Below, in pieces: positions 3,102 through 52,699 of a stretch of 64,000 nt of DNA (position 1 is the stretch's first letter; the number at the start of each line of letters is the position of its first letter). A program made the position numbers and the translations under genes. The stretch is from Candidatus Zixiibacteriota bacterium. Its GTDB lineage: Bacteria; Electryoneota; B3-LCP. Under the pieces are notes generated by a model. That model was not told the origin of the DNA and made no database searches. It saw nothing but the letters and a program-made list of their open reading frames with translations. The DNA lies in contig QZKQ01000033.1 of NCBI GenBank assembly GCA_003599535.1, forward strand, positions 48,837 through 112,836, written 5' to 3'.

Positions 3102-3216
3102 CCTATCCCACCTCCCATCTTTCCATCTTCTAATTTTTCTTTTTCCTTTTTCCCTTTTCCAATTTCTTTCCCTTCCCTCTCCCCCACCCTCCTGTTATTC
3201 TCCTCACATTTCCCCC
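3102..3216 (+). repeat. about 115-nt polypyrimidine (CT-rich) low-complexity tract
   Basis: cctatcccacctcccatctttccatcttctaatttttctttttcc...ctcccccaccctcc. Almost purine-free on the plus strand. It is the complement of the purine-rich heptamer-type tracts seen in other spacers. Confidence 0.8.
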
Positions 3217-4576: not shown

Positions 4577-4975
4577 CTTTCGCCTCGGGGGACTTGCCTT
4601 CTCCTCGCTTCAGAATCGCAGATTTTCGCTGACTTATCTGATTATGCAGATAACGTTGCCGCCAGGATTGAAGCGGGAATTCTTGCGCCGCTCCCGAAAA
4701 GAAGGAGGCGAAGTTATCTTGTGCAGATTGGTTAAGAGGTTAGAGTAGCGATTCCTGGCGGCGATGCTCTTTTGTCAGAATCACGGATTAAACGGTAGTA
4801 ACGGATTAAACGGATATGGTTCGACCCCGCTGGGTCGTGATGGAGGAGAGAGCCTTGTCTCCACCCTTGGGGGTGGCTACCCATGTTAATCCCCTTCGGG
4901 GATGGAATCTTCTGGCTCCTGGCTCCTGACTCCTGTTCTTCTGCCTTTTGACTCCCGAATTTTGGATTCTTTACC
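4577..4975 (-). repeat. modular hairpin-rich intergenic mosaic, copy A (inverted orientation)
   Basis: The reverse complement carries the same module order as copies C/D/G. Modules: heptamer tract CAGGAGTCAGGAGCCAGGAGCCAGAAG (4909-4950), CCCCGAAGGGG hairpin, AATCCGT repeats ending ..GTGATTCTGAC (4775-4789), GCCGCCAGGA/TCCTGGCGGC stem (4658-4762), and a second ATCTGCGATTCTGA-like end (4610-4623). Confidence 0.8.
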
Positions 4976-6996: not shown

Positions 6997-7038
6997 CGCC
7001 TCTCGCATCTCGGATCTCGCCTCTCGGATCGCGCATCT
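6997..7038 (+). repeat. heptanucleotide-periodic tract (CGNNTCT)x6
   Basis: cgcctct cgcatct cggatct cgcctct cggatcg cgcatct. A related tract lies at about 29400-29470. Confidence 0.75.
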
Positions 7039-10957: not shown

Positions 10958-11039
10958 CGCTGAGTATAAAGACGGTTCCGCCGCCGGGACCGTCCCGGCC
11001 CCGGCGCCAACTCCACGATTCCACGCCTTGGATCTTCCC

Positions 11040-11480
11040 ATGCGCCTCTCTCTGGCTTGCGACCATGCCGGCTTCGCCTTGAAGGAGCAGTTGAAAGCGC
11101 ACCTCCTGGACCACGGGCACGAGGTCCTTGACCGGGGGTGCTTCGATGAGGCCTCCGTGGATTACCCCGATCACGGCGTGCTGGCCGCCCGGGACGTGGC
11201 CGACGGCCTGGCGGACCGGGCGGTGCTGGTGTGCGGGTCGGGGATCGGCATGAGCATTGTAGCCAATAAAGTGCGCGGCGTCCGGGCCGCGCTTTGTTTT
11301 TCCCCGGAACTGGCGGAGATGAGCCGCCGCCACAACGACGCCAACGTCCTGGCCCTGGGCGCCCGCTTCACCGACCCGGACACCGCCCGGCGCATCCTGG
11401 ACGTCTGGCTGGACACCCCTTTCGAAGGCGGCCGCCACCAACGCCGCGTGGACAAGATCTCCGGCCTGGGCGATTATTAA
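11040..11480 (+). CDS. rpiB: ribose-5-phosphate isomerase B
   Basis: MRLSLACDHAGFALKEQL.., GSGIGMSIVANKVRGVRAA and ..ANVLALGAR.. are canonical RpiB/LacAB motifs. Confidence 0.9.
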   Translation: MRLSLACDHAGFALKEQLKAHLLDHGHEVLDRGCFDEASVDYPDHGVLAARDVADGLADRAVLVCGSGIGMSIVANKVRGVRAALCFSPELAEMSRRHNDANVLALGARFTDPDTARRILDVWLDTPFEGGRHQRRVDKISGLGDY

Positions 11481-12804: not shown

Positions 12805-14094
12805 ATGAAAAGTTTAGCCGAAGTGGATCCTGAAATTAAAGACGTCATCCGCGGCGAACTGCACCGGCAGAGCTTCACGCTGGAAATGATCGCTTCGGAA
12901 AACTTTACCTCCCGCGCCGTCCTGGAAGCCATGGGATCGGTGCTGACCAACAAGTACGCCGAAGGCTACCCCCACAAGCGCTATTACGGCGGCTGCGAAT
13001 ACGTGGATACAGCCGAAGAACTGGCCCGGGAACGCGCCTGCCGGCTGTTCAAGTGCCGCTGGGCCAACGTACAGCCCCACGCCGGATCGCAGGCCAACAT
13101 GGCGGTTTACATGGCCCTGCTCCAGCCCGGCGATACCGTCATGGGTATGAATCTGTCCCACGGCGGCCACTTGACTCACGGCAGTCCGGTGAACTTCTCC
13201 GGCCGGCTGTACAAGATCATCCCCTACGGCGTGGGCGAGAAGACCGGCACCATTGATTTCGACCAGGTGCGGCAGCTGGCGCACGAACACAAGCCGAAGA
13301 TGATCATGACCGGCGCCTCGGCCTACCCGCGGATTATAGACTTCGCCCGCTTCCGGCAGATCGCCGACGAAGTGGGGGCCTACCTGGTGGCCGACATCGC
13401 CCACATCGCCGGGATGGTGGCCACCGACCTGCACCCCTCCCCCATCCCCCACTGCCACATGGTTACCACCACCACGCACAAGACCCTGCGAGGGCCGCGC
13501 GGCGGGGCCATCATGTCCGACTTCGAGGGCGGGGAAATCCTGCTCTCCGGCATGCCCAAGCCCAAGACCCTGACCGAAGCGGTGGATTCGCTGACCTTCC
13601 CCGGCATACAGGGCGGGCCGCTGATGCACGTCATCGCGGCCAAGGCGGTGGCCTTCAAGGAAGCGCTGCAGCCGGAATACACGGCCTACTGCGAGCAGAT
13701 CCTGAAGAACGCCCAGGCGCTGGCCGAAACTCTGGCCGGAGAAGGCTTCAACCTGGTGTCCGGCGGCACCGACAACCACCTGATGCTGGTGGACCTGCGC
13801 AACATGGACATCACCGGCAAGGACGCCGAAGCCGCCCTGGAAAAAGCCGGCATCACCGTGAACAAGAACACCGTACCTTTCGAAACCCGCAGCCCCTTTG
13901 TCACCTCCGGCATCCGCATCGGCACGCCGGCGCTGACCACCCGGGGCATGAAGGAAGCCGAAATGCGCACCATCGGCAAGTGGATCTCCCGGGTGATCCA
14001 TCATGCCGCCGACGAGAAAGTCATCGCCGAGGTCAAATCCCAGGTCGAAGAGCTGTGCAAGGGGTTCGTGATTTACGGGGATTTGATGGATTAG
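12805..14094 (+). CDS. glyA: serine hydroxymethyltransferase
   Basis: Full-length SHMT with the PLP-lysine motif [14 protein letters not shown]. Confidence 0.95.
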
Positions 14095-14115
14095 GGGCTG
14101 GGGGCTGGGGGCTGG
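14094..14115 (+). repeat. (GGGGCTG)x3 heptamer tract abutting the glyA stop codon
   Basis: ggggctg ggggctg ggggctg starts at the last base of the TAG stop. Confidence 0.85.
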
Positions 14116-18581: not shown

Positions 18582-19154
18582 ATATTCACCACAGAGACAC
18601 GGAGAATAGAATCCAGAAGCCAGAATACAGGAGTCAGGAGCCAGAAGCTAGGAGAATCCGAGGGTGGAATGGGTGTTCCTGCCTGACGGAGGGCCGATGC
18701 CTCAGTGGCGCAAGCGTCCCCGCTTGCGGTTATCTGCGGCCAGCCACGAAGTGGTCACTGCGTGACAGAAACGCCGGCCTTACTGATCTAATCTTTGAGG
18801 GCATTGCATTGGGATGGCCATCTGCCGGCGGACGGATTGTGGCCACATGAATCCCCGCGTAGGGGCGGGGCTTAGCTTACCCCTTCGGGGACCCCGTCCG
18901 CGACTCCCCAGGAGTCGAATAATAGTAACATCGGGCGCCAGCCCGGGGTGGAGGCGACCTCGTCAATCCTCCCGACTCTGCCACGCAGTCCTGGGCGAGA
19001 CTCGTCCCGCGCCATAACACCAATACGACCACAATCCTCGGTTGACGAAAAGCCATCCATATACGATGAGCTCAACCCGATTCCCCACCGGGCTGTAACC
19101 TTTGTGAGAATGACAAACAGAGCCAGCAGCCAACAGCCAGCAGCCAGGAGCCAT
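18582..19154 (+). repeat. modular hairpin-rich intergenic mosaic, copy B
   Basis: Starts 1 nt after the ispG stop with ATTCACCACAGAGACACGG plus the heptamer tract 18589-18658. Also carries the GGCCATC..GATTGTGGCC module, the CGCAAGCG-TCCC-CGCTTGCG hairpin (18709-18728, also at 41494-41513), GTAGGGGCGGGGC words, and ends in the (AGCCARC)n tract 19121-19152. Confidence 0.75.
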
Positions 19155-20293: not shown

Positions 20294-20730
20294 AATTCAC
20301 CGCAAAGACGCAGAGAACGCAGAGAAAATAGGATCCAGAAGCCGGCAGTCAGAAGAATAGGAGTCAGGAGTCAGGAGTCCGGAGATTCGGACGGCCATCC
20401 GTCAGCCGACGGATCGTGGCCCACACCCCGCAGGGGTGGTCCTTTAGTAGCCGTAGGTTTCAACCTACGGAGAAGGGGAATCCCATACCTCCTTTTCTAC
20501 AACCCTGAAGGGGTTGACCATAATCCGTTCAATCCGTTCCATCTGTTTCATCTGCGATTCTGACGTGGGGCCGCCAGGAATCGCTTCGCTTTCCCTAAGG
20601 GACCACTGCGTGGCAATCCTGGCGGTAACGAGGAATATTTCTCTGTAAGCCGTAGAGCACCCGCTTCAGCGGGTAGCATGATAGTAGCCCAGGAATTCAT
20701 TCCTGGGTGGGTTGCCAACCGCCACCTCCC
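20294..20730 (+). repeat. modular hairpin-rich intergenic mosaic, copy C (most complete)
   Basis: Module order: heptamer tract 20294-20385; GGCCATCCGTCAGCCGACGGATCGTGGCC; CACCCCGCAGGGGTG; CCGTAGGTTTCAACCTACGG; CCCTGAAGGGG; AATCCGT repeats ending ATCTGCGATTCTGAC (20550-20564); GCCGCCAGGA..TCCTGGCGG stem (20570-20625); ACCCGC-TTCA-GCGGGT; CCCAGGAAT-TC-ATTCCTGGG (20688-20707). Confidence 0.85.
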
Positions 20731-22207: not shown

Positions 22208-22256
22208 GGCTCTCGGCTGTCGGCTCTCGGCTCTCGGCTCTCGGCTATTAGCTCCT
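22208..22256 (+). repeat. (GGCTCTC)n heptamer tract, left inverted arm of the four-helix-bundle cassette
   Basis: ggctctc ggctgtc ggctctc ggctctc ggctctc ggctatt agctcct. Reverse-complementary to 22701-22731. Confidence 0.85.
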
Positions 22257-22305
22257 GGATACTGATAATTAATGCAGACATCAAATAATATCTTCGGAGG
22301 ATACA

Positions 22306-22695: not shown

Positions 22696-22700
22696 CCGAT

Positions 22701-22731
22701 AGCTGAGAGCCGACAGCCGAGAGCCGAGAGC
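22701..22731 (+). repeat. (AGCCGAG)n heptamer tract, right inverted arm of the four-helix-bundle cassette
   Basis: agctgag agccgac agccgag agccgag agc. Pairs with 22208-22256 with about 3 mismatches in 28 nt. Confidence 0.85.
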
Positions 22732-22764: not shown

Positions 22765-22809
22765 ATATGCCTCCCGCGTGTTGACCCGCGTCATCAACCG
22801 GAGCCTCCC

Positions 22810-23295
22810 ATGAAGCGATATGAAGCCCCGCGCAAGGAATTGATCGAAGGCGTGGCGGTCAAGGATCTGAAGATCATCCCTGACGAGCGCGGCCGGCTGA
22901 TGGAAATCCTGCGCTCGGACGACCCCCTGTTCGTCAAGTTCGGCCAGGTGTACATGACCACCAACTACCCCGGCGTAGTCAAGGCCTGGCACTACCACAA
23001 GCAGCAGGTGGACCACGTGGCCTGCGTCAAGGGGATGATCAAGCTGGTCATGTTCGACGACCGCGAAGGCAGCCCCACCCGGGGGATCCTCAACGAATTC
23101 TTCCTGGGCGAGCATAACCCCAAGCTGGTGCGCATCCCTTCGGGGGTGTGGCACGGCTGGAAGGGGGTCAGCGAGACCGAGGCGCTGATCGTCAACACCA
23201 CCACCGAGCTGTACGACCCGGCCAATCCGGACGAATACCGGCTCCCCTTCGACACGGACAAGATCCCTTACGACTGGGCGATACGGATGGGGTGA
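22810..23295 (+). CDS. RmlC-like cupin (dTDP-4-dehydrorhamnose 3,5-epimerase-related sugar epimerase)
   Basis: ..IIPDERGRLMEILRSDD..GQVYMTTNYPGVVKAWHYHKQQVDHVACVKG.. is the small epimerase-like cupin pattern. Confidence 0.75.
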   Translation: MKRYEAPRKELIEGVAVKDLKIIPDERGRLMEILRSDDPLFVKFGQVYMTTNYPGVVKAWHYHKQQVDHVACVKGMIKLVMFDDREGSPTRGILNEFFLGEHNPKLVRIPSGVWHGWKGVSETEALIVNTTTELYDPANPDEYRLPFDTDKIPYDWAIRMG

Positions 23296-23424
23296 CCCCG
23301 GAATAAATTCCGGGGCTCTCCCGTAAAACCAAGTCACTGAAGTGACTGGCGATGTTTCGAAATCACGGCAGTCTCTTTAGAGACTTTCAATCCTAAAAGA
23401 GAGCACCCGAATTCATTCGGGTGC
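23296..23424 (+). repeat. about 130-nt four-hairpin composite element (copy J) upstream of gcvPB
   Basis: CCCCGGAAT-AA-ATTCCGGGG (23296-23315), AGTCAC-TGAA-GTGACT, AGTCTCT-TT-AGAGACT (23370-23385), GCACCCGAAT-TC-ATTCGGGTGC (23403-23424). Collinear with 37389-37520. Confidence 0.85.
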
Positions 23425-23514
23425 CAAGACCGGCGATCATCAACACTTGAAACCATCTCTGACCAGTTTCCGTTTAATATCAACCCGCATTTCCCCATAA
23501 ACCTTCGATGACCC

Positions 23515-25041: not shown

Positions 25042-25442
25042 GGGGCCGGGATGGCAGAACCGGAAGTACTGCACATAAGTATAAGAGTAGTCAGGAGCCG
25101 GGAGTCAGGAGCCAGAAGTCTCGGAGGCATAGCACCCCTGGAGAACGTAACCTGTCCTCTCCTCTTTTCCCGAACGACATCCGCGAAATCTGTCAGATCT
25201 GAGCCAATCTGCGATTCAGAAAAGAGTAAAATTTCCGTGGAATCCGTGTGATCCGCTCGATCCGTGATTCTGACCATTTCCTGACCGTGAGATTGCTTCG
25301 GCCCGCCCTTTGGTGGTCTATTCTGACGGATGATGACAACCTCCAGGTCACAGACTCGTTCAGGCTTTATCTCCGGCGGGCCTCGCAATGACACTGCGAT
25401 TCGGGCGGAGTCAAGCCCCCCTACGCGAGCAGTCACCAGCGA

Positions 25443-25529: not shown

Positions 25530-25569
25530 CCAGCCAACAGCCAACAGCCAATAGCCAGCAGCCAATCCC

Positions 25570-33661: not shown

Positions 33662-36172
33662 ATGGGACATGCCTACCGCTTCTTGTTTGCCGGCTTGATG
33701 CTCGCCCTGTCCGCCCTGCCCGCCCGGGCTGTGGTGGACCTGAATTCCGCCCCTCTTGACCAGATCCAATCGTTACCTTTAAGCCCGGAGCAGGCCCGGG
33801 CGATCTGGGAGCGGGTGTACTACCAGGGGCCCCTGGGGAGTCTCTACGATCTCTTCGATCTGCCCGGCTTCGACACCCCCACGGTGGAAGCCCTGCGTCC
33901 CCTGGTGCGGGTGGAACCCCCGGTTTCCGGCGACCTGCGCGCCGCACGCCGGGAACGGCTCTCCCGGCGCCTCAGCGACCTGGGCACCGATGAAGGCTCC
34001 GGGGCCGCCTGGTCGGACGCCTGGTTCGACCGGCTGGTGGATCCCCTGAACGTCAACCGGGCCTCCGCCGAAGAGATGGCGGGACTGGAAAACCTCTCCC
34101 CGGTGGACGCGGTGGCCATCTACAACCAGGTCAGGTCTCAGGGCGAGCTGAAGAGCGTGCGCGAGCTGCGCACCGTCCCGGGGCTGTCCCGCTTCGGCTA
34201 CTATTCCGCCCGGGATTACCTGGTGTTCGAGGACGCGGCGGAGATCCGCGCCCTGCACGGGTCCTACCAGTTCCGCGCCTACAATATCCCCTACTTCCAG
34301 GATGAAGAAGACGTCATCCCCGCTGAAGCCCTGCGAAGTCCCGAACCGGATCTGACCCACAAGCTGCGCCTGAACTACGGCCGGCAGTGGCGCTTCGGCC
34401 TGTCCTATCACCGCAATTTCGGCGAACCGGATGCCTACTTCAATCCCGGCGCCGGATTCCAGATCCCCGAAGTAAAAGCCTACCTGGGGCTGGAAGATCG
34501 TCCTCTCGGTCCCGTGAAACTGGAGCGCGCTTACCTGGGCAATTTCCACGTGTCCGTGGGGCAGGGGTTGATCGTGGAGACGGGCGATTACTTCACGCCG
34601 CGCTATTCCGGCTACGATTTCGCCCAGCGGCCGTACGGCGTGATTGGGGACTTGTCGCGCACCCGGGAATACGGCTTCCGCGGTGTGGCGGCGCAGGCTG
34701 CGTGGAAGAAGCTCTCGGTCCTGGGCTTCGTGTCCCTGGACGAGAAGGACGCCGTGGTCAATCCCGACGGCTCCTTCAGCTATCTGGTCTCCCTGACGCC
34801 CCGGCAGGACTTCGACCTCTACCCCGCCGCCCTGGCCGATCCGGAAGACAGCAGCAGTTGGGTGGACCCCTATCCCGGTACGCAGAGCCCGCTGGAGGCG
34901 GTCAAGGAATTCGCCGCCGGCACCAACCTGCAGTACCGTTTCGCCCCGGGGTCGCACGTGGGCGTGACCTACTTCGAGACCCTGTACGATCGGGAGCTGC
35001 ACCCCGACATCTACGCCCTGGTGGATTCGGCCGAATACGACGAGATCAACGACGACTACGCCAACGCGGAAATCCTGAACTCCTACTCGTCCCTGGCGCG
35101 GTCGTCCATCTGGGGTCCGGCGCAGTCGCTGCGGCGCATCTACGGCCTGGAAGGACGCTGGGTGGTCAATAACCTGGCCTTCCAGGGGGAAGTGGCTGAA
35201 CTGGAGGTGGACGGGTCGCCCTTCAAGTTCGGCGACGACCCCAAGGCCATGGTCTTTTCTGCCTTCGCCCAGTGGAACAGCGTGAATCTGCTGGCTCTCT
35301 ACCGCCACTACGACGTGGCCTACGACAACCCCTACAATCGCGGCTTCGCCAACTACTCCCGCTACAAGGGCACCATTTTCGAAGATTACTACTACCTGAA
35401 CGATCCGACGTTGGGATCGCTCTACACCAACGCCGCCGCGCCCCAGGCCGAGGACGGAGTGTTCCTGAAATCGCGGGTGCAGTGGAGCCGCCAGGTGACT
35501 TCACAGGTGGAACTGGACAACTGGACCCGCCTGGCCGACGGGCAGGACTACCACCGCTGGGTGGTGAAACTCTACTACCGGCCGGTCTACCCGGTACAGT
35601 TCAACCTGCGGCAGAAGTTCCAGGCCCGCGCGGCGCTGAATCCGTTCGACAAGCAGTACTACGACAGCCGGGAAAGCCGCCTGACCCTGCGCCTGCTGCT
35701 GTCCCGCCGCGACCGGGTGGAACTGTTCTACGCCGCGGGGTACACCCAGTGGCCGCCCCGCCCGCGCTTCAGCGGCGACCCTGCGCCCACCGGGAATTAC
35801 ACCTCCATCGGCAACAACGCCGTGCACAACGAGGCGCTGGGAATCACCCTGGAACACCACTTCAGCAACCGCTTGCAGGCTTCCGCCTTCTGGGGGATGT
35901 ACCAGGGCTTCCTGTGGACCTTCGAGGACACCGATTTCATCATCCTGGACGGGGAAGCGACCCGCGCCTGGTTCGCCCTGGCCTCGCGGCTTTCCGACCA
36001 GATTTCCGTGCGCCTGAAGTACGCCTTCGAAGACGGCCTGCCGGTGACCAACGTCCAGGCCCGCGATAACAACGAGTGGCCTGTCCAGCAGCCGGTCGGC
36101 CAGCCCACCTCCGCCTGGAACGTGACCGACCACACTGATTCCTTCCGGGTGCAGGTGGATTGGTATTTTTAA
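33662..36172 (+). CDS. helix-hairpin-helix (ComEA-like) motif protein fused to a large predicted outer-membrane beta-barrel
   Basis: Signal peptide MGHAYRFLFAGLMLALSALPARA. HhH-like motifs VDLNSAPLDQIQSLPLSPEQARAI and VNRASAEEMAGLENLSPVDAVAIYNQV. About 600 aa of amphipathic beta-strand pattern ending ..FRVQVDWYF (terminal aromatic OMP signal). Confidence 0.62.
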   Translation: MGHAYRFLFAGLMLALSALPARAVVDLNSAPLDQIQSLPLSPEQARAIWERVYYQGPLGSLYDLFDLPGFDTPTVEALRPLVRVEPPVSGDLRAARRERLSRRLSDLGTDEGSGAAWSDAWFDRLVDPLNVNRASAEEMAGLENLSPVDAVAIYNQVRSQGELKSVRELRTVPGLSRFGYYSARDYLVFEDAAEIRALHGSYQFRAYNIPYFQDEEDVIPAEALRSPEPDLTHKLRLNYGRQWRFGLSYHRNFGEPDAYFNPGAGFQIPEVKAYLGLEDRPLGPVKLERAYLGNFHVSVGQGLIVETGDYFTPRYSGYDFAQRPYGVIGDLSRTREYGFRGVAAQAAWKKLSVLGFVSLDEKDAVVNPDGSFSYLVSLTPRQDFDLYPAALADPEDSSSWVDPYPGTQSPLEAVKEFAAGTNLQYRFAPGSHVGVTYFETLYDRELHPDIYALVDSAEYDEINDDYANAEILNSYSSLARSSIWGPAQSLRRIYGLEGRWVVNNLAFQGEVAELEVDGSPFKFGDDPKAMVFSAFAQWNSVNLLALYRHYDVAYDNPYNRGFANYSRYKGTIFEDYYYLNDPTLGSLYTNAAAPQAEDGVFLKSRVQWSRQVTSQVELDNWTRLADGQDYHRWVVKLYYRPVYPVQFNLRQKFQARAALNPFDKQYYDSRESRLTLRLLLSRRDRVELFYAAGYTQWPPRPRFSGDPAPTGNYTSIGNNAVHNEALGITLEHHFSNRLQASAFWGMYQGFLWTFEDTDFIILDGEATRAWFALASRLSDQISVRLKYAFEDGLPVTNVQARDNNEWPVQQPVGQPTSAWNVTDHTDSFRVQVDWYF

Positions 36173-36598
36173 GCAAGAATCCAGAAGCCAGAATACAGGA
36201 GCCAGGAGGTCCGGAGGGTGGGATAGGCATTCTTGCCTGTCGGAGGGCAATCCGTCTCCTGACGGATCGTGGCCAACACCCCGAAGGGGTGATCTTTTTG
36301 TAGCCGTAGGTTTCAACCTACGGAGAGGATCAGCCTCCTCCCCTTCTCGACCCCGTAGGGGTCGAACCATGTAATCCGCGTAACCTGCTAAATCGTTGAA
36401 AATCTGCGATTCTGACGGGGAGAGGAAGCGACCCCCGCCGCCAGGAATCGCCACTTAAGGGCGGGCTTAAGTCCCACTTCGCTCCAATCCTGGCGGCAAC
36501 GTGAAGCACCCGGCACACTCTGGATCCCATGGTTCGCTGGGAGGACATCGCCGAGAACCGAGAGCCGAGAGCCAACAGCCAAGCGCCAACAGCCATAC
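36173..36598 (+). repeat. modular hairpin-rich intergenic mosaic, copy D
   Basis: Same module order as copy C: heptamers AATCCAGAAGCCAGAATACAGGAGCCAGGAG, GATCGTGGCC module, CACCCCGAAGGGGTG, CCGTAGGTTTCAACCTACGG, GACCCCGTAGGGGTC, ATCTGCGATTCTGAC (36402-36416), GCCGCCAGGA/TCCTGGCGGC (36437-36497), (AGCCRAS)n 36556-36594. Confidence 0.85.
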
Positions 36599-39623: not shown

Positions 39624-39935
39624 AGACCCTCACCTCCGTTTTAGCGTTGTCAGAATCGCAGATGGAACGGAGGGAACGGATGTTGGTCCACCCCTTCAGG
39701 GTGGCACAGGAGGGTGGGGTATCCTTCTCCGGGGGTTACCACGCAGTGGTCCCTTCGGGAAAACACCCCGGCTACTAAAAGACCACCCTTCCAGGGTGAA
39801 GGCCACGATCCTTCGGTAGACAGATGGCCTTCCCAATCTCCTGGCTCCTGACTCCTATTCTTGTGCCTTTTGTATTCTTTTCTTCGTTCATCTGTGTCCA
39901 TCTGTGTGATCTGTGGCTTCCCAACTCATCCCCTC
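39624..39935 (-). repeat. modular hairpin-rich intergenic mosaic, copy F (inverted); left arm of the inverted pair around the YhaM-like gene
   Basis: The reverse complement of 39649-39788 aligns with 41059-41200 with about 8 differences in 142 nt. Outer end GTCAGAATCGCAGAT (39649-39663). Heptamers CTCCTGGCTCCTGACTCCTATTCTTGTGCC face the gene. Confidence 0.88.
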
Positions 39936-39947
39936 ATGGAGCCTCCC

Positions 39948-40949
39948 ATGTCCTCCGCCCTCACCGACAAATTCCTTCGAGAGCTGGCCGAAAACGAGCG
40001 TTTCGCCGGGTTCGTGGTACTGCGCAGCATCCATGTGCGCCAGAAGAAGGATGGGTCCCCCTTCCTGACCCTCGAATTCGGCGACCGGTCGGGCCGCATG
40101 CCCGGCAAGCTGTGGGATCACGTGGAAGAGTACCGCAAGATCCTGGAACCGGGCAAGATCGTCAAGCTGCTGGGCAGCGTAACCACCTACCAGGATCAGA
40201 AGGAGATCCAGATCGAGCGGCTGCGGCTGACCACGCCCGAAGATCCCGTGGACCGTTCCCGCCTGATTGCCGTCAGCGAACGCCCGGTCGAGGAGATGCG
40301 CCGCCACCTGCGCCGGTTGATCGAAGCGGTGGTTCAGCCCGGGTTACGCTCCTTCCTGCGCCGCTTCTTTGACGACCCCGCCATCGCCGGCCCCTGGCTG
40401 GAAGCGCCCGCCGGAAAGCTCTGGCACCACTGCTACCTGGGCGGCCTGGCCGAACATTCCCTGAATATGGCGGAAATCCTGCTGAAGGTGGCGGAACTGT
40501 ACCCCCACGCGGATAAGGACCTGCTCATCGCCGGCGCCCTGCTGCACGACGTGGGCAAAATCGAGGAGCTGTCCTGGGACACGGACATTGACTACACCGA
40601 TCGCGGCCGGCTGGTGGGGCACATCGTTCTGGGGCAGGAAATCCTGCTGCGCCACCGCCAGGACGGCGAAATGCCGGAAGAGACCTGGAACTGCCTCCTG
40701 CACCTGCTGCTGGCCCACCAGGGCAACGGCGAACAGGGGTCGCCGGTGAAGCCGCAGACCCTGGAAGCCATCCTGCTGTACTACGCCGACGAAATGGATT
40801 CCAAGGCCAACGCCTTCAACCGCATCATCCAGCGCGCGCGGGAACAGGGCGACCGCTGGTCGGAATATATCAAGCTGATGGAACGCTTCCTGTACGCCGG
40901 ATCAAAGCCGCAGGAGGGGGGGGAGGTCAAGGAAGGGGATCTGTTTTAG
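39948..40949 (+). CDS. YhaM-like 3'-5' exoribonuclease (OB-fold + HD domain)
   Basis: N-terminal OB-fold (..VVLRSIHVRQKKDGSPFLTLEFGDRSGRMPGKLWD..) and HD domain (..LLHDVGKIEE.., ..LLAHQGNGE..). ATG 39948 has GGAG 6 nt upstream. ATG 39936 is an alternative. Confidence 0.8.
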   Translation: MSSALTDKFLRELAENERFAGFVVLRSIHVRQKKDGSPFLTLEFGDRSGRMPGKLWDHVEEYRKILEPGKIVKLLGSVTTYQDQKEIQIERLRLTTPEDPVDRSRLIAVSERPVEEMRRHLRRLIEAVVQPGLRSFLRRFFDDPAIAGPWLEAPAGKLWHHCYLGGLAEHSLNMAEILLKVAELYPHADKDLLIAGALLHDVGKIEELSWDTDIDYTDRGRLVGHIVLGQEILLRHRQDGEMPEETWNCLLHLLLAHQGNGEQGSPVKPQTLEAILLYYADEMDSKANAFNRIIQRAREQGDRWSEYIKLMERFLYAGSKPQEGGEVKEGDLF

Positions 40950-41608
40950 CCACGGAAATAGAATTCAGAAGCCAGAATTCAGAAGCCAGAAGAAGAATAC
41001 AGGAGCCAGGCGTCAGGAGCCAGGAGCCGGGAGTCAGGAGCCAGAATATCACCCCGCAGGGGTGGTCTTTTAGTAGCCGGGGCGTTTTCCCGAAGGGACC
41101 ACTGCGTGGTAACCCCCGGAGAACGGATTCCCCACCCTCCTGTGCCACCCTGAAGGGGTGGACCATAATCCCCTCCCTCCGTTCTATCTGCGATTCTGAC
41201 CATGAGATTGCTTCGGCCGCTGAAAAAACGCGGCCTCGCAATGACACTGCCGGGCGATGGGCGGAGATTGCTTCGGCCGCTGAAAACCGCGGGCCTCGCA
41301 ATGACACTGCCGGGCGATGGGCGGAGATTGCTTCGGCCGCTGAAAACCGCGGGCCTCGCAATGACACTGTTAGTTAAGCATCAAGCGTCAAGAACCCCCG
41401 GCGGACTGCGCGGCGGGTTAATGAATTGAGCGAAGGATGGGTTCGGCGCTCCGCCGCTTAGTCCGCCCTACAACACTCCCCACATGAAGGTGGCGCAAGC
41501 GTCCCCGCTTGCGATTGTTTCCACCGGCAGAGACGCCGGCGCTATCCTCTTTTACTTATTACTTATTACTTTATACTTCTTTTATCTCTGACTTCAAAGG
41601 AGCTTTTC
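40950..41608 (+). repeat. modular hairpin-rich intergenic mosaic, copy G; right arm of the inverted pair around the YhaM-like gene
   Basis: 12-unit heptamer tract 40961-41044; arm 41059-41200 ending ATCTGCGATTCTGAC; tandem 60-mers 41204-41369; GGCGGACT..AGTCCGCC stem 41400-41467; CGCAAGCG-TCCC-CGCTTGCG 41494-41513; TACTTAT-type heptamers 41550-41590. Confidence 0.88.
41204..41369 (+). repeat. tandem direct repeat, 60-nt unit x 2.8
   Basis: Units 41204-41263, 41264-41323 and 41324-41369 of GAGATTGCTTCGGCCGCTGAAAACCGCGGGCCTCGCAATGACACTGCCGGGCGATGGGCG. Units 2 and 3 are identical. Unit 1 differs in the AAAAAACGCGG loop. Each unit carries an ATTGC..GGCCGC/GCGGCC..GCAAT hairpin. Confidence 0.92.
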
Positions 41609-43417: not shown

Positions 43418-45346
43418 CTACTTGATTAGTACCATCTTCCAACTGAGCGTCTGTCCTGCCGTCTGCAGGCGGTAGAGGTACATTCCTGAAGCCAATCCCG
43501 ACCCGTCGAAGGTTGCCCGGTGAGTCCCCGCTTCCCGCCAGCCGTCCACCAGGGTGGCAACTTCCCGCCCGGCGGTATCGTAAACCTTCAGGCTGACGCG
43601 GCTGAAGGCGGTAAGCTGATAACGGATCGCCGTCGCGGGATTGAAGGGATTGGGGTGGTTGCCCATTAAGGAGGTCGCCTGGCGTAAGGCCGTTCCCGGC
43701 AGCTCGAAGCTCCGGCTGACCTCCCCGTCGGACAGGGTAGCGATGACCGGGCCGCCGGTTCCGTCTCCCGCTGTCGCCGATTTTTCAAAGGTGAAGCTGT
43801 CGAAGCTTTCAATTCCCATGGGGTGTTCGCCCACATAGGCCGTGACGGTGTAGGTTCCGGCCATGGCCGTGCCGGGCAGAGTTAACCCCAGCACGCGAGC
43901 CAGGGTACCGCCGGCCGGCAGGTACAGGTCTTCCCGCAGCACCATGGGAACGACCTGGCTGTCGGGCTGCTGCAGGGTGTACCAGGCGTCGTACAGGTTG
44001 AAGTAGTCGGGGGAGTTGGTGATGGCCAGGCCGAATTCCACCGTGCCTCCGGCGGGCGGCAGGACGATGGGGCTGCCGAACGGCGTCAGGCTGATGGTGC
44101 AGGTGCCCTGCGGCTGGTTCTGGTCGAAGTAGTGGGCGCCCACGTCGGCGAGGGTGCTGTCGGGGTCCGGCGAAGCCAGGGGGCTGCCGGTGTCAATGCA
44201 GGGGCTGTAGGGCATCAGGTTGAAATTGATCCCGCCGACGAAACAGGGGTTGGCGTCGAAATTCCCCGCCCCCGGATACATACCCTCCACGTCGCTGTAG
44301 GTCAGGACCAGGCTGCTGCCGGTTTCGACGTAGATCCCGAAGATGTTGTTGCGCAGGATGTTGTTGCGTCCGAAGGGATGGGAATTCTGCCACACCCGCA
44401 ACCCGTGGGCCCCGTTCCACATAATGGTACAGTTGTCAATCAACGGAGAGCTCTGGTTGTAGCAACTGACGGCCACGTTACCGTTCAGGCAGAGTTCCGC
44501 GTACATCACTTCGGGACTGGAGAAGTTCCGGCAGTAGAGTCCTGAGCCGGACATTCCGACAGACATGTTCTCGCTGATGGCGCCGTAGTGGATTGCGGGC
44601 GAACTGTGATCCAGCAGAATTCCTCCTCCGTTGGCGGTCTCGGCGGCATTGTGGTGAATGAAGTTGTTCTCGAACAGGCCGTGGGTGTAGGTGCAGTGAA
44701 TGCCGCCGCCGTTATCCGCCCGGTTGTTCCAGATGATGTTGTCATGCAGGTAGGGGTTGGCGCAATCGTCCAGGAACAGGCCGCCGCCGTCGCTTTCGCA
44801 GAAGTTCTGGGTGATGACGCAATGGTCAATTTCCGCGTTGCACTTGCGCAGGTAAACACCCCCGCCCTTGACGTCGGCGTTATTCTGTTTGATGGTGCAA
44901 TAGCGCAAAACCAGCATGCAACTGTCGGCGTGGATGCCGCCGCCGCGGCTGTCCGGCTGACCGACGGTGCCCTGGGCGTGGCCCCGTTCGATGGTGCAGT
45001 AGACCAGCTCGGAGGTACCCTGTGATTGCAGGAAGCGGAGCCCCGCCCAGGAGCCGGCCGAGCCGACGGCGTAGGACATCAGGATCATCTCCTGCTCGGT
45101 GCCCAACGCCCTCAGGACGCCGTGCACCAGAAAGCGGTAGTGGCCGGTGAAGCACACCTCCACGCCCGGCTGAATGACCAGGCTGTCACCGGCGGGCACG
45201 TCAATGTCCGACACCACCAGGTAGGGCGACCCGGCGGCGGTCCAGGCGCCGGTGACGACGCCGGAAACGATGGTATCTGCGCGTAGCGCCGGCACGGTCA
45301 GGATCAGGATCGCCAGCACAGCGCAACCGAAGCGTAGTCTTTTCAT
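43418..45346 (-). CDS. secreted right-handed parallel beta-helix repeat protein with T9SS C-terminal sorting domain
   Basis: Signal peptide MKRLRFGCAVLAILILTVPALRA. PbH1-type repeats (..GGGIHA.., ..GGGVYL.., ..GGGLFL.., ..GGGIHC..). CTD ..HPNPFNPATAIRYQL..VSLKVYDTAGREVATL..SGMYLYRLQ..KMVLIK. Start ATG at 45346. Confidence 0.8.
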   Translation of the reverse strand: MKRLRFGCAVLAILILTVPALRADTIVSGVVTGAWTAAGSPYLVVSDIDVPAGDSLVIQPGVEVCFTGHYRFLVHGVLRALGTEQEMILMSYAVGSAGSWAGLRFLQSQGTSELVYCTIERGHAQGTVGQPDSRGGGIHADSCMLVLRYCTIKQNNADVKGGGVYLRKCNAEIDHCVITQNFCESDGGGLFLDDCANPYLHDNIIWNNRADNGGGIHCTYTHGLFENNFIHHNAAETANGGGILLDHSSPAIHYGAISENMSVGMSGSGLYCRNFSSPEVMYAELCLNGNVAVSCYNQSSPLIDNCTIMWNGAHGLRVWQNSHPFGRNNILRNNIFGIYVETGSSLVLTYSDVEGMYPGAGNFDANPCFVGGINFNLMPYSPCIDTGSPLASPDPDSTLADVGAHYFDQNQPQGTCTISLTPFGSPIVLPPAGGTVEFGLAITNSPDYFNLYDAWYTLQQPDSQVVPMVLREDLYLPAGGTLARVLGLTLPGTAMAGTYTVTAYVGEHPMGIESFDSFTFEKSATAGDGTGGPVIATLSDGEVSRSFELPGTALRQATSLMGNHPNPFNPATAIRYQLTAFSRVSLKVYDTAGREVATLVDGWREAGTHRATFDGSGLASGMYLYRLQTAGQTLSWKMVLIK

Positions 45347-45476
45347 GGTACGTCCTTTGGATGGGAGAGCGGCGCAGATCCGGGGGCCGGAGTGCGCAAA
45401 ACGGGCGAAGAGGCGGACCGGATGATCCGCCCCTTCGGTTACTACCACACCATGGCGAGGGGCATGGAATCGCAGG

Positions 45477-47411
45477 TTACTTCATCAGGGTCATCTTGCC
45501 GACGGAGCGGACCTCGCCCGCCTGCAACACGTACAGGTACAGTCCCGAGGCCAAACCGGAGGCGTCGAAGGTGACTTCGTGCGAACCGGCCGCCCGCCAG
45601 CCGTCCACCAGGTCCGCCACCTGCCGCCCCTGCAGATCATAGACTGCCAGGCGCACCGGGGCGGCCTGGGCCAGGTCGAAGGCGATGGTGGTGGTGGGAT
45701 TGAACGGATCAGGGTAGTTGCCCTTCAAGGCGGTCGCCTGGGGCAGGGCCGTTCCCGGCAGCTCGAAGGTCTCGCTGACTTCGCCGTCGGACAGGGTGAC
45801 CGTGGCCGGACCTTCGGGGAGACCGTCGGTCGCGGACTTTTCGAACGTGAAGCTGTCGAAGTCCTCGATCACCGTGGGATGCTCGCCCGTGTACGCCGTC
45901 ACGGTGTAGGTTCCGGGCATGGTCGTGGAGGAGAGGGTCAGGCTGAGGGTCCGGGACAGGTTGCCTCCGGCCGGCAGGTACAGGTTGGTCCGCAGCACCA
46001 TGGGGATGATCTGGCCGTCCGGCTGCTGCAGGTTGTACCACCCGTCGAACAGGTTGAAGTAGAGCGGCGAATTCATGATGGACAAGCCGAACCATACCGT
46101 GCCCCCGGTGGGCGGCAGGACGATGGGGCTGCCGAACGGAGTCAGGGTAATGGCGCTGGTGCCCTGCGGCTGGTTCTGGTCGAAGTAGTGGGCGCCCATG
46201 TCGGCGATGGTGCCGTCGGGGTCCAGCGGCGCCTGGGGGCTGCCGGCGTCAATGCAGGGGCTGAAGGGCATCAGGTTGAAGTCGTCGCCGTAGGGGTTCA
46301 CGAAGAATGGCTGGACGTTGATGTTGCCGGCCCCGCTCCAGTAGACTTGGATATTGCTGTAGGTCAGGTAAATGCTGCATCCCGAGCTGACGTAGAAGGC
46401 GTAGCTGTTGCCGGTGATGATGTTGTTCCGGCCGAAAGGATTGGAGCTCAGGTAGGTGCGGATGGCGTAGCTGCCGTTGCCGTGGATGGTGTTATTGTCA
46501 ATGGTGGGAGAACAGTTGTCCCCGCAGTAGATGGCGGTGTAGTTGTTGAAGCAGATCTCGTTGTACATCAACAGGGGGCTGGCGAAATGCTGGCAGTACA
46601 CCCCGGCGCCATAGCTGGAGGAGGCGGTATTATGGTTGATCTTGCAGTTCTGTATCAGCGGCGAGCTGTGGTCCAGGAGAATGCCGCCGCCGTTGCTGGA
46701 AGTGGCGGAATTATAGTTGATCACATTGTCCGACAGCACGCCCCCGGTGTAGACCAGGAATAGGCCACCGCCGTTGTCGGCGCTGTTGGAAGTGATCACG
46801 TTGTCGTGAATGTCGGCGTTGTTGGTGTATTCCACGAACATACCGCCGCCGTCGCCGTTACAGGTGTTGTTAGTGATGAGATTGTCATGAATCGCGCCGG
46901 TGATATTATGGGCGAAGATGGCCCCGCCCTTGGTGTCCGCCTTATTCTGATAGAAACGGCAGTTGTGGATGCTGAGCGCGGCGCTGAGGGCGTGCACTCC
47001 GCCCCCCTTGCTGGAGGTCTGGCCCACCTGGCCCTGGGCGTAACCCCACTCGATCACACAGTAGGCCAATTCACTGGAGCCCACGGTATTTTCGAAGAAC
47101 AAACCCGCCCAGGTGTAGTTGGGGTAGGGAAGGTGGTGCGTGAAACGGATGGAATCCGTAGGGGTGCCGACCGCGGTCATGGGGCCGTGAGCGATGAGCT
47201 TGAACTGGCCGGTGAACTTGACTTCCACGCCGGGCTGAATCGTCAGACTCAGGGCCGCGGGAATTTCCACGTCCGCCAGCACCACGTAGGGCGATCCGGC
47301 GGTGGTCCAGGTGCCGCTGACCTGGCCGGCGACGTAGGTGTCGCACAGGGCCGGTTGCGTCCAGAAGGACAACAGGATCAACAGGCTGCCAAGGGGAATG
47401 AGTCGCTTCAT
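45477..47411 (-). CDS. secreted parallel beta-helix repeat protein with T9SS CTD (tandem paralog of 43418-45346)
   Basis: Signal peptide MKRLIPLGSLLILLSFWTQPALC. Collinear with its neighbour along the full length. CTD ..YPDPFNPTTTIAFDL..LAVYDLQGRQVADL..SGLYLYVLQ..KMTLMK. Start ATG at 47411. Confidence 0.8.
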   Translation of the reverse strand: MKRLIPLGSLLILLSFWTQPALCDTYVAGQVSGTWTTAGSPYVVLADVEIPAALSLTIQPGVEVKFTGQFKLIAHGPMTAVGTPTDSIRFTHHLPYPNYTWAGLFFENTVGSSELAYCVIEWGYAQGQVGQTSSKGGGVHALSAALSIHNCRFYQNKADTKGGAIFAHNITGAIHDNLITNNTCNGDGGGMFVEYTNNADIHDNVITSNSADNGGGLFLVYTGGVLSDNVINYNSATSSNGGGILLDHSSPLIQNCKINHNTASSSYGAGVYCQHFASPLLMYNEICFNNYTAIYCGDNCSPTIDNNTIHGNGSYAIRTYLSSNPFGRNNIITGNSYAFYVSSGCSIYLTYSNIQVYWSGAGNINVQPFFVNPYGDDFNLMPFSPCIDAGSPQAPLDPDGTIADMGAHYFDQNQPQGTSAITLTPFGSPIVLPPTGGTVWFGLSIMNSPLYFNLFDGWYNLQQPDGQIIPMVLRTNLYLPAGGNLSRTLSLTLSSTTMPGTYTVTAYTGEHPTVIEDFDSFTFEKSATDGLPEGPATVTLSDGEVSETFELPGTALPQATALKGNYPDPFNPTTTIAFDLAQAAPVRLAVYDLQGRQVADLVDGWRAAGSHEVTFDASGLASGLYLYVLQAGEVRSVGKMTLMK

Positions 47412-47560
47412 GATTGCTCCTCCGATGAGGGTAAGAACTGGATTGAGGGATTCTTTAGTGATCAAGCGAAAACCAGTGGAGGAATAGCATCTCATGCAGC
47501 CATAATGATCGTGGATTACACAATGCTTCCGTCGTAAGCACCGCCGAGACTACCGGCCAT

Positions 47561-52618: not shown

Positions 52619-52671
52619 TGGGCCCAGCAGGATTCGAACCCGCGACCCACGGATTAAAAGTCCGTTGCTCT
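52619..52671 (-). tRNA. 3'-terminal fragment of tRNA-Lys(UUU); 5' acceptor strand and D-arm missing
   Basis: The reverse complement is AGAGCAACGGACTTTTAATCCGTGGGTCGCGGGTTCGAATCCTGCTGGGCCCA. It contains the anticodon arm ACGGA-CTTTTAA-TCCGT, the T-arm GCGGG-TTCGAAT-CCTGC, and the acceptor 3' strand plus discriminator A. Adjacent sequence has no GGGCCCA or GCTC D-stem. Confidence 0.75.
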
Positions 52672-52699
52672 TGTGCGGGAAAAGGGGCAAAATCGGGCG

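Follow-up and report, generated by a model that had tools for sequence, protein, structure and literature searches.

Heptanucleotide repeat tracts of a 64-kb bacterial locus and their association with foldback cassettes carrying a four-helix-bundle gene

The DNA analyzed here is a 64-kb window, that is, the whole stretch of 64,000 nucleotides taken from contig QZKQ01000033.1 of a Candidatus Zixiibacteriota assembly (GCA_003599535.1). Its first 42 kb contain approximately 16–17 short arrays of 7-nt repeats, detected with Tandem Repeats Finder (TRF) and by a lag scan. These heptamer tracts are probably the arms, and the orphaned remnants of arms, of small selfish foldback cassettes, which resemble the intervening sequences (IVSs) of 23S rRNA genes and carry an open reading frame (ORF) for a four-helix-bundle protein. 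One complete cassette is present, comprising an arm, an AT-rich leader, the ORF and a complementary arm. In addition, there are seven composite elements that lack the ORF and several solo arms.

Catalogues of heptanucleotide repeats in intergenic DNA go back to 1990, under the name of short tandemly repeated repetitive (STRR) sequences, and the canonical units reportedly given by Mazel et al. in that year are CCCCAGT, TTGGTCA and CAACAGT. The tracts of the window are of a known kind, STRR-like heptamers and an S23p-type IVS, in a new setting and a new lineage. If the association laid out below holds genome-wide, it joins three oddities that have been described separately: STRR-type repeats, rRNA IVSs and stand-alone four-helix-bundle genes. 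The gene family in question is the one that includes both the ORF of 23S rRNA IVSs and the Avd accessory protein of retroelements, and its link to the heptamers is a testable lead on the nature of STRR-type repeats. Cassettes of this type in operons, cas operons included, are usually annotated as unrelated hypothetical genes, and they inflate the spacers of this genome several-fold.

Period-7 signal in the spacers

TRF reported period-7 arrays of 2.7–11.7 copies at 16 sites, beginning at positions 3134, 4912, 6997, 14094, 18608, 19121, 20359, 22208, 22696, 25089, 25531, 36171, 36550/36570, 39838, 40966 and 41552. The tracts quoted in a first-pass annotation of this DNA were recovered from the sequence and by TRF, either at the same place or a few bases away. 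The lag scan, in which at least 16 matches in 21 comparisons were needed, gave 15 tracts at lag 7, 10 at lag 14 and 6 at lag 21, compared with 3 at lag 6, 4 at lag 9, 3 at lag 12 and none at other unrelated lags.

Intergenic DNA, as defined by a gene map built from third-codon-position GC content (GC3) and Pfam, amounts to 8,462 nt. Relative to shuffles, its self-match is elevated at lags 7, 14 and 21 (z = 6.4, 6.0 and 4.2), the remaining lags of 5 or more do not exceed z = 2.4, and the coding DNA of the window shows period 3 only. The intergenic periodicity that had been proposed from inspection is thereby confirmed. Coherent Fourier power over whole spacers rises only marginally at period 7 (0.98 versus 0.65–0.94), since individual tracts are short and do not share a phase; for such arrays autocorrelation is the proper statistic. 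Tracts number 2.3 per 10 kb in the window; across unrelated bacterial loci totalling 1.28 Mb the figure is 0.23, approximately 10-fold lower. This background consists of 80 loci from a scan of a genome collection with IspG, where among the matches listed none exceeded 61% identity.

All tracts fall in spacers or abut the ends of genes, which supports the earlier view that they are non-coding, and all lie within 3–42 kb of the window, with none in 42–64 kb. They are head-to-tail tandem repeats of 7 nt with at least three copies, are dispersed over many intergenic loci and over-represent a unit length of 7, so that the STRR-like character assigned to them stands. The periodicity had also been called strict. 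Instead, the units are degenerate, with TRF scoring 72% matches for 40966–41046.

That the arrays are artefacts of a metagenome-assembled contig is scarcely credible. The window does come from an uncultured organism, but the same architecture, and even the same unit, is found in finished isolate genomes (Nostoc punctiforme, Aulosira, Nostoc edaphicum, Azospirillum and Geobacter) and the architecture recurs in dozens of independent metagenome assemblies. In addition, the tracts are 22–87 nt long, far shorter than reads.

Cassette arms and the four-helix-bundle gene

The complete cassette is located between a DUF6504 gene and a sugar-epimerase-like gene (Table 1). Its ORF matches the Pfam profile at 4e-36 and scores 118 bits with TIGR02436, for which the cut-off is 24; among proteins of known structure, PDB 2GSC is a homologue (1.3e-17). 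The ORF is compositionally foreign, with a GC3 of 0.49 compared with 0.77–0.89 in the neighbouring genes, and the leader has a GC content of 33%. The downstream arm is the reverse complement of the upstream arm, variant units included. The two are 83–93% complementary, although they contain 6 versus 4 units, and form a closing stem of approximately 45 bp in both the minimum free energy and the centroid folds (z = -4.0). A PF05635/TIGR02436 ORF combined with terminal inverted repeats that close a long stem is characteristic of an S23p-type IVS; here, no rRNA is present in the window and the cassette is not in helix 25 or 45 of a 23S rRNA gene.

Two other assignments of the cassette were considered and rejected. 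For a diversity-generating retroelement, the genes scanned with Pfam include no reverse transcriptase domain, and template and variable repeats are missing, the only repeats flanking the ORF being the heptamer arms. For an integron attC cassette, there is no integrase, and arms are present on both sides of the ORF.

A metagenome scan with the ORF yielded 80 loci containing relatives of 42–65% identity, 71 of which were testable. The 260 nt upstream of each relative were compared with the reverse complement of the 260 nt downstream, a score of at least 40 being taken as strong. Such inverted scores were obtained for 25 of the 71 loci, compared with 0 for the shuffle maxima and 2 for comparisons in the same orientation. 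The controls were 780 ORFs from the IspG loci, each at least 200 aa long; two reached this score, and none (0/780) had heptamer-periodic arms. When the arms are compared with themselves, lag 7 nearly always gives the best match. Within 350 nt of the ORFs the density of period-7 tracts is 14.9 per 10 kb, compared with 1.18 elsewhere in the same loci and 0.23 in the unrelated loci, so that tracts are approximately 65-fold enriched beside this ORF family. Period 7 accounts for 139 tracts in these loci and any other period for at most 20; many of the tracts away from the ORF are inverted pairs that lack it. When the first-pass annotation singled out the four-helix-bundle protein as a candidate for binding the repeats it chose aptly, as the gene family is statistically tied to heptamer arms in many genomes.

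The arms of different cassettes are built alike from different units. Across 29 distinct cassettes they are approximately 93% Watson-Crick paired, even as the unit differs from one cassette to another; median distances are 80 nt from the end of the upstream arm to the ORF and 8 nt from the stop codon to the start of the downstream arm. By a strict criterion, both arms have the same unit in 15 of 17 cassettes, with a median of 4–5 units per arm and the logo R-G-C-T-W-T-N, to which the window units GGCTCTC, GGCTCCT, GGCTTCT, GGCTGTT and GGCTGGG conform on the appropriate strand.

The same arrangement is found in finished replicons. A tblastn search of a plasmid collection with the ORF returned 26 records, mostly from Nostoc, Calothrix, Trichormus/Anabaena, Scytonema and Aulosira, which are the organisms of the original STRR reports. 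Period-7 tracts lie within 200 nt of the ORF in 11 of the 12 loci fetched, and inverted arms are present in at least 8 (examples in Table 1). In Nostoc punctiforme and Aulosira laxa, (TCAGGAG/TCAGAAG)x4-5 runs up to the start codon and CTTCTGRATTCT lies past the stop codon; the former is the unit of the tract at 40960–41046, from which this analysis started. The Azospirillum match is inside a 23S rRNA gene (Rfam LSU, 1140 bits), which makes it a true rRNA IVS. Here too the arms have a period of 7 and pair to close the stem (z = -8.3), and the Nostoc edaphicum cassette folds likewise, its arms closing the stem (z = -7.0). Elsewhere in these replicons the ORF is a small insert in unrelated operons, including one between ribonucleotide-reductase subunit genes.

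Several further observations concern these loci. The ORF lies inside CRISPR-Cas operons of cyanobacterial plasmids, as cas6-[ORF]-cas4 in two genera and as cas10-[ORF]-cmr3 in a third (L164, Pseudanabaena; L173, Anabaena sp. 90; L169, Picosynechococcus), which may reflect either a preference in insertion site or a functional tie to CRISPR. Heptamer tracts, some as inverted pairs, directly follow the ispG stop codon in unrelated bacteria, namely the metagenome-assembled genomes (MAGs) of a Desulfacinum, a Nitrospirota and a "Deltaproteobacteria" member, and Petroclostridium (L004, 187–398 and 2690–2758; L019, 11062–11171; L022, 11075–11120; L001, 11051–11095). The units at L022, CTGACTC/AGTCAGG, are that of the window. 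Across the 10–21 kb of these loci there is no four-helix-bundle gene. A locus with a relative of the four-helix-bundle gene (L102) contains (TAACTGA)x4 and (CTTCTGA)n tracts, at 1194–1236 and 599–636, the former being the repeat known from Beggiatoaceae and cyanobacteria (PMC4679880).

It could be argued that the arms act at the level of DNA, either as binding or bending sites for nucleoid proteins (integration host factor, IHF, or HU) or as hairpin landing pads that received the ORF module, in which case the arms would be owned by the host. Several facts suit this proposal. Geobacter metallireducens has eight inverted (MTYCTGA)x5 pairs, close to the unit of the 40960 tract, that have been read as IHF/HU sites (PMC2700814); inverted pairs without the ORF are common near cassettes; in the window, the arms share the high GC content of the host, in contrast to the AT-rich leader and ORF; and a test of G.U mismatches, given below, detected no signal of selection on an RNA strand. 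We nevertheless consider it quite unlikely, as the arms of rRNA IVSs belong to the insert and act as RNA (Azospirillum; PMC4990558). Moreover, arm units co-vary, if modestly, with ORF sequence (rho = 0.30), which a generic host site does not explain.

Composite elements, solo tracts and their surroundings

The AGAAGCC/AGGAGYC tracts form the first module of a composite element of 170–280 nt (approximately 240 nt), of which the window has seven copies (A–G, Table 1), five of them in + and two in - orientation. Heptamers come first, followed by several short hairpins rich in GC, then by a 9-mer array (AATCCGTNN)n and lastly by the terminus CTGCGATTCTGAC. Among the hairpins is a terminator-like one, CACCCCGNAGGGGTG, followed by a T-run. 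The hairpin modules and the terminus are shared by 5–7 copies. In element B the order is 9-mers (ACGCAGAGA)x2, heptamers, hairpins, 9-mers (AATCCGTTC/ATCTGTTNC)x4 and CTGCGATTCTGAC; when it is folded as RNA (z = -4.2), the 9-mer array at its 5' end pairs with the one at its 3' end. The downstream core of element A is unlike those of B, D and F, element D has its terminator-like hairpin at 36277–36291, and the heptamers of element G end 33 nt ahead of the start codon of an ABC-transporter gene. No Rfam family is matched by the composites, either at the gathering threshold or at E <= 1. The 9-mer arrays were also seen as inverted ends of the composites, (ACGCAGAGA)n at the 5' end and (AATCCGTTC/ATCTGTTNC)n at the 3' end, at 20308–20326, 20522–20555, 4783–4815, 25234–25266 and 18590–18602.

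Table 1. Heptamer tracts, composite elements and associated genes in the window, with arms of cassettes from finished cyanobacterial replicons
Feature	Position	Strand	Description
Upstream cassette arm	22208–22256	+	GGCTCTC GGCTGTC GGCTCTC x3 GGCTATT AGCTCCT; first base directly follows the stop codon of the preceding gene
Four-helix-bundle ORF, 129 aa	22306–22695	+	TIGR02436 / PF05635 ("23S rRNA IVS protein", S23p, Avd-like)
Downstream cassette arm	22696–22731	+	…GAGAGCC GACAGCC GAGAGCC GAGAGC; starts at the base after the ORF stop codon
Element A, heptamer tract	18603–18655	+	21 nt past the ispG stop codon
Element B	20294–20564	+	Directly after a stop codon; heptamers 20330–20384
Element C	25086–25274	+	Heptamers 25086–25120, divergent core, 9-mers, GTGATTCTGAC
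Element D	36171–36416	+	Heptamers 36171–36208 overlap the stop codon of the upstream gene
Element E	39649–39868	-	93% identical to F over 151 nt, in inverted orientation
YhaM-like 3'-5' exoribonuclease gene (OB fold + HD domain)	39948–40949	+	Enclosed by E and F
Element F	40960–41200	+	Heptamers, hairpins, terminus ATCTGCGATTCTGAC
Reported tract	40960–41046	+	10 nt past the HD/OB exoribonuclease stop codon; 5' module of element F
Element G	4774–4946	-	Heptamers CTTCTGG CTCCTGG CTCCTGA CTCCTGT (+ strand) 4909–4942
Solo tract (AGCAGCC/AACAGCC/AGGAGCC)x5	19118–19153	+	Abuts the ATG of a PCC-domain gene
Solo tract (CAGCCAA)x5	25530–25566	+	3 nt ahead of the ATG of an exonuclease-helicase gene
Solo tract (GAGAGCC)x3 then (AACAGCC)x3	36546–36595	+	3 nt ahead of the ATG of a radical-SAM gene
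(GGGGCTG)x3 = (GGCTGGG)n	14094–14115	+	Abuts the glyA stop codon
(CGCMTCT/CGGATCT)x6	6997–7038	+	42 nt past a stop codon; pyrimidine-type
Nostoc edaphicum arms			TAGGGAG x8 and TCCCTAC x5
Nostoc sp. C052 arms			GGGAACA and TGTTCCC
Geminocystis arms			GGGAAAA and TTTTCCC
Anabaena sp. 90 arms			ACAGGTG and TCACCTG

The tracts are not independent simple repeats; the main family is one module of a dispersed element of approximately 240 nt. The run AGAATCC AGAAGCC AGAATAC AGGAGYC AGGAG occurs with the same order of variants at 18608 and at 36176, and elements A and D agree at 97% over their first 33 nt, where the units differ from one another yet follow the same order in both. Such conservation of order indicates dispersed copies and not independent slippage.

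This bears on the simplest of the competing explanations, namely that the tracts are plain simple-sequence repeats (SSRs) generated in place by polymerase slippage, with a length of 7 being favoured and the product tolerated in spacers, without any element or function. Heptamers are the commonest long class of SSR in many bacteria, for which slippage has been proposed (Mrazek et al. 2007, via PMC4679880; see also PMC4692102). Partner arms are often unequal in a manner that slippage would produce, with 6 versus 4 units in the window, 17 versus 4 at locus L125 and 3.7 versus 24 at locus L154, and copy number differs between strains of Coxiella (PMC4990558). In place slippage is nonetheless very unlikely to account for the tracts as a whole. 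It does not predict multi-unit patterns in the same order at distant loci, joined to the same non-repetitive modules, nor the complementary inverted pairs (25/71 versus 0/780 heptamer-armed controls), nor the enrichment of approximately 65-fold beside one gene family. In addition, no change in length was found between identical cassettes from different samples. Phase-variable SSRs, or contingency loci, differ in repeat number even among closely related strains and thereby turn a gene on or off. The first-pass annotation had suggested looking for variation in copy number and none was seen among identical cassettes, as 11 pairs of identical ORFs from different samples have tracts of identical length, the sole difference being the truncation of one at a contig end.

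The tract on which the first-pass annotation was centred belongs to element F. It is not a single array but two blocks, (AGAATTCAGAAGCC)x2.3 = (AGAATTC AGAAGCC)x2.3 at 40960–40991 and (AGGAGYC)x6 at 41001–41046, with a phase slip of 1 nt between them. These are followed by the terminator-like hairpin CACCCCGCAGGGGTG and a T-run (41048–41066). At the 3' end of the element, the partner of the heptamers comprises approximately 1.5 units, GATTCTGAC, and the element folds with z = -1.5. Elements E and F are the most similar pair of copies and enclose the exoribonuclease gene in opposite orientations. The heptamers of E, CTCCTGG CTCCTGA CTCCTAT on the + strand (39838–39868), lie 79 nt ahead of the exoribonuclease start codon. 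If the two were co-transcribed, the predicted E:F RNA duplex would span approximately 240 bp, at -385 kcal/mol compared with -132 +/- 8 for shuffles.

The enclosed gene itself is native, with a synteny that its relatives share. These are 65–75% identical, one of them being from a candidate division LCP-89 bacterium. Two syntenic relatives (L081 and L082) have the same order of genes separated by spacers of 22–88 nt, compared with 324 and 659 nt in the window, and so the window spacers have been inflated by insertions. The closest relative, L081 (75% identity), has a single period-7 tract in its 19-kb locus, of unit (TGAATGA)n at 11011–11045. It lies in the orthologous exoribonuclease-peptidase spacer, which suggests that this spacer has been occupied for a long time or repeatedly.

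The tracts had further been said to lie after stop codons, before start codons or as inverted pairs, and all three arrangements hold. Seven start between -2 and +36 nt from a stop codon (14094, 18603, 20330, 22208, 22696, 36171 and 40960), five end 0–33 nt ahead of a start codon (4909, 19118, 25530, 36546 and 41552) and two inverted pairs bracket genes. A second type of tract, (AGCCAAC)n/(GAGAGCC)n, lies 0–3 nt ahead of three start codons and also forms the inverted pair 22208–22256 and 22696–22731. The 36546–36595 tract is 83% complementary to the cassette arm at 22208–22255, and the final unit of the 19118 tract, AGGAGCC, provides a Shine-Dalgarno sequence (19155). The AT-rich tracts at 3134 and 41552 are not clearly members of the same family; for the 6997–7038 tract membership is plausible, though the case is weaker. 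In addition, the same start context, GGAGCCTCCC|ATG, is found at two unrelated genes (22797–22812 and 39935–39950). As GGAGCC is a unit of the heptamer tracts, these contexts may be single-unit remnants that now serve as ribosome-binding sites.

These positions raise the alternative that the tracts are cis-regulatory RNA sites in 5' or 3' untranslated regions, serving as binding arrays (for S1, cold-shock protein or a CsrA-like protein) or as mimics of ribosome-binding or anti-Shine-Dalgarno sequences that tune the translation or mRNA stability of neighbouring housekeeping genes, with the link to cassettes being secondary. Three tracts end 0–3 nt before start codons, one giving the AGGAG of a Shine-Dalgarno sequence; the main unit CAGGAGY includes a GGA motif and one resembling a Shine-Dalgarno sequence, and the complement CTCCTG resembles the anti-Shine-Dalgarno sequence; the + copies place a tract between a stop codon and a terminator-like hairpin; and most copies have their purine-rich strand in the sense orientation. 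The same role has been proposed for TAACTGA repeats before start codons (PMC4679880). As a general explanation, however, it is unlikely. Both orientations exist (E and G are inverted), units are highly diverse within this genome and between genomes, orthologous spacers of relatives with 71–75% identity either lack tracts or have a different unit, and the flanking genes share no regulon-like theme. The strongest association, moreover, is with a mobile ORF and not with a class of host genes.

Two narrower candidates were set aside. A CsrB-like sponge, suggested by the resemblance of CAGGAGC to CAGGAUG, is at odds with the many tracts that lack GGA and with the occurrence of both orientations. 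A G-quadruplex is applicable to (GGGGCTG)x3 only.

The window has approximately 62% GC with a GC3 of approximately 0.8, nearly all genes of the first 42 kb are on the + strand, and housekeeping genes include glyA, ispG, rodZ, a miaB-like gene, gcvP and lapB. The organism is not a cyanobacterium, its nearest relative with a name being from candidate division LCP-89. The segment 42794–64000, which has no heptamer tracts, has a lower GC content of 0.52–0.62 and encodes large beta-helix and FG-GAP proteins with C-terminal sorting domains of the type IX secretion system; the tandem paralogues 43418–45448 and 45477–47495 share segments that are 70–79% identical.

Other repeats are also present. An imperfect hairpin unit of 60 nt, GAGATTGCTTCGGCCGC…GCGGGCCTCGCAATGACACTG, is repeated in 2.8 tandem copies with 97% matches at 41204–41369, and a further copy with an insertion of approximately 75 nt in the loop lies at 25289–25392. 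It looks like a repetitive extragenic palindrome (REP), is absent from the other loci fetched and has no match in Rfam. The 22-nt palindrome GCACCCGAATWWATTCGGGTGC occurs six times (14298, 23294, 23402, 28600, 37388 and 37498). Several copies lie just upstream of start codons or overlap them, and 23402–23425 on the - strand is terminator-like. These may be a protein-binding operator or a family of bidirectional terminators of this lineage. The hairpin GTGGCGCAAGCGTCCCCGCTTGCG is a small dispersed module common to the spacers at 18715–18745 and 41486–41513, of which the copy at 41494–41513 is terminator-like. Finally, a weak, partial match to the Rfam tRNA model (52627–52676, - strand; 30.6 bits against a gathering threshold of 29, model positions 10–63), not called by ARAGORN, could reflect either a fragment of a tRNA or chance.

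Proposed mechanism and relation to known systems

On the reading that the tracts are foldback-cassette arms and their remnants, cassettes and their derivatives would have colonized transcribed spacers, abutting stop and start codons and enlarging these spacers relative to related genomes. Each arm would be an array of approximately 4–6 degenerate heptamers and would stay complementary to its partner, so that the transcript could fold into a stem of 28–45 bp or, for E and F, of approximately 240 bp around a whole gene. By analogy with the stems of rRNA IVSs, such stems could be substrates of RNase III. Cleavage would then cut the insert out of the host transcript, or insulate it within that transcript, leaving the flanking cistrons undamaged, so that the host could tolerate insertions in its operons and transcribed spacers. 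Building the arms from a single short unit would render their pairing tolerant of shifts in register, while slipped-strand events would lengthen or shorten an arm in steps of 7 nt, which would explain the unequal numbers of units in partner arms. Some tracts may have been co-opted locally, one as a Shine-Dalgarno sequence and others by lying just ahead of a terminator hairpin. Slippage, cis-regulatory RNA and DNA-level sites each account for some of the observations, but none of the three explains the association with a gene and the signature of dispersed copies together.

A number of observations weigh against this proposal. Only 2 of the approximately 17 window tracts flank an ORF; the others are connected to cassettes by similarity of unit, inverted pairing and co-occurrence, and the AT-rich tracts at 3134 and 41552 depart from the R-G-C-T unit. 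The core modules of the composites are absent from all 1.6 Mb of other loci fetched, so that the composites are lineage-specific and only the heptamer arms generalize; these modules are likewise untied to four-helix-bundle genes. Five unrelated loci have clear heptamer tracts without such an ORF within 10–21 kb. With respect to mobility, no target-site duplication is evident at the ends of copies and no empty site was found, and the genes annotated with Pfam in the 64-kb window include no transposase, reverse transcriptase or RAYT, the transposase associated with REP sequences. With respect to action as RNA, G.U and A.C mismatches number 18 and 10 (p = 0.18), which gives no bias for a sense-strand RNA stem, and the polarity of the arms (purine-rich arm first or last) varies between lineages. 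Lastly, the cassette has a promoter-like site at 22262–22289 which, if used, would yield an ORF transcript without the upstream arm.

A far broader proposal, which we regard as speculative and doubtful, is that heptamer arrays across bacteria (STRRs, Xanthomonas GGGAATC, Geobacter MTYCTGA and Beggiatoaceae TAACTGA) are the footprint of one unrecognized class of mobile or self-maintaining element. Its only protein, the pentameric TIGR02436 four-helix bundle, would recognize the arms and drive or protect their propagation, possibly with one unit per subunit since arms typically have 4–5 units, and most tracts would be derivatives lacking the ORF that are mobilized or maintained in trans. The heptamer repeats themselves are known; their systematic link to the TIGR02436/PF05635 family appears to be undescribed. 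A full-text literature search did not find a general link of this type, although absence from such a search is no proof that it is unpublished.

The closest known relatives of the window cassette are the 23S rRNA IVSs with an S23p ORF found in Leptospira, Coxiella and Brucella (PMC4990558). Both have a PF05635/TIGR02436 ORF closed by a long inverted-repeat stem. The Coxiella IVS has a closing stem of 28 bp, which is cut by RNase III in vitro, and contains tandem GACAGAT heptamers in the stem region whose number varies between strains (PMC4990558); the arms of the Azospirillum IVS are heptamer-periodic, as described above. Unlike an rRNA IVS, the window cassette lies between protein-coding genes and is accompanied by many derivatives without the ORF and by solo arms. 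Excision by RNase III is known for rRNA IVSs (PMC4990558) and is predicted for the window cassette.

STRRs were rightly cited in the first-pass annotation as a precedent, but they are not the only one, as Geobacter metallireducens, Xanthomonas, Beggiatoaceae and the Coxiella 23S IVS also qualify. The STRRs of Calothrix, Anabaena and Nostoc and the repeats of Xanthomonas share with the window degenerate tandem heptamers at many intergenic loci near the upstream stop codon, as well as inverted pairs. The Xanthomonas GGGAATC and Anabaena GGGGAYT repeats are approximately 90% intergenic and lie a mean of 28 nt from the upstream ORF, often as convergent pairs, with lengths that differ between species (PMC4692102). 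In addition, the relatives of the ORF found in plasmids come mainly from these cyanobacterial genera and are flanked by heptamers. In contrast, the window host is a relative of candidate division LCP-89 and not a heterocystous cyanobacterium, its units are AGGAGYC, AGCCAAC and GAGAGCC, and STRRs are not described as arms of gene cassettes in the literature searched. The function and origin of intergenic heptamer repeats have been called unknown (PMC4692102, PMC4679880).

The class 3 repeats of Geobacter metallireducens, the (MTYCTGA)x5 pairs, have nearly the same heptamer (reverse complement TCAGRAK), and the Gmet_I302A sequence is near-identical to the reverse complement of 40960–40991 over approximately 30 nt. 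The class 2 repeats of this species, 9-mers (TCTCCGTS[Y])x3 in 21 inverted pairs (PMC2700814), resemble the 9-mers at the ends of the window composites, so that in both genomes arrays of 7-mers and of 9-mers lie as inverted pairs within intergenic spacers. Unlike the window repeats, these belong to another phylum, were read as DNA sites for IHF/HU or global regulators (PMC2700814), and have no reported ORF between the pairs. The TAACTGA repeats of marine Beggiatoaceae, cyanobacteria and Bacteroidetes are alike in their 2–6 copies immediately ahead of start codons, for which a translational regulatory role was proposed, and in their patchy occurrence across phyla (PMC4679880); they differ in having one fixed unit, mostly in one orientation, with no inverted partners or cassette reported.

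As a protein, the ORF product has the fold and family of Avd from diversity-generating retroelements, PF05635 being the Avd family (PMC10053308; PDB 2GSC). Unlike avd, the window ORF stands alone, without a reverse transcriptase, template repeat or variable repeat. As genetic elements, the composites resemble miniature inverted-repeat transposable elements, the mosaics of bacterial interspersed mosaic elements and REP sequences, and eukaryotic foldback elements in being small (under 300 nt), in their modular make-up and in occurring as several non-coding copies between genes; inverted ends are also seen in element B. They differ in that no target-site duplication, transposase or RAYT was found in the window and in that the sole associated protein is a four-helix bundle, which is not known to be catalytic. 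With foldback elements in particular, the window elements share arms that are made of short tandem repeats.

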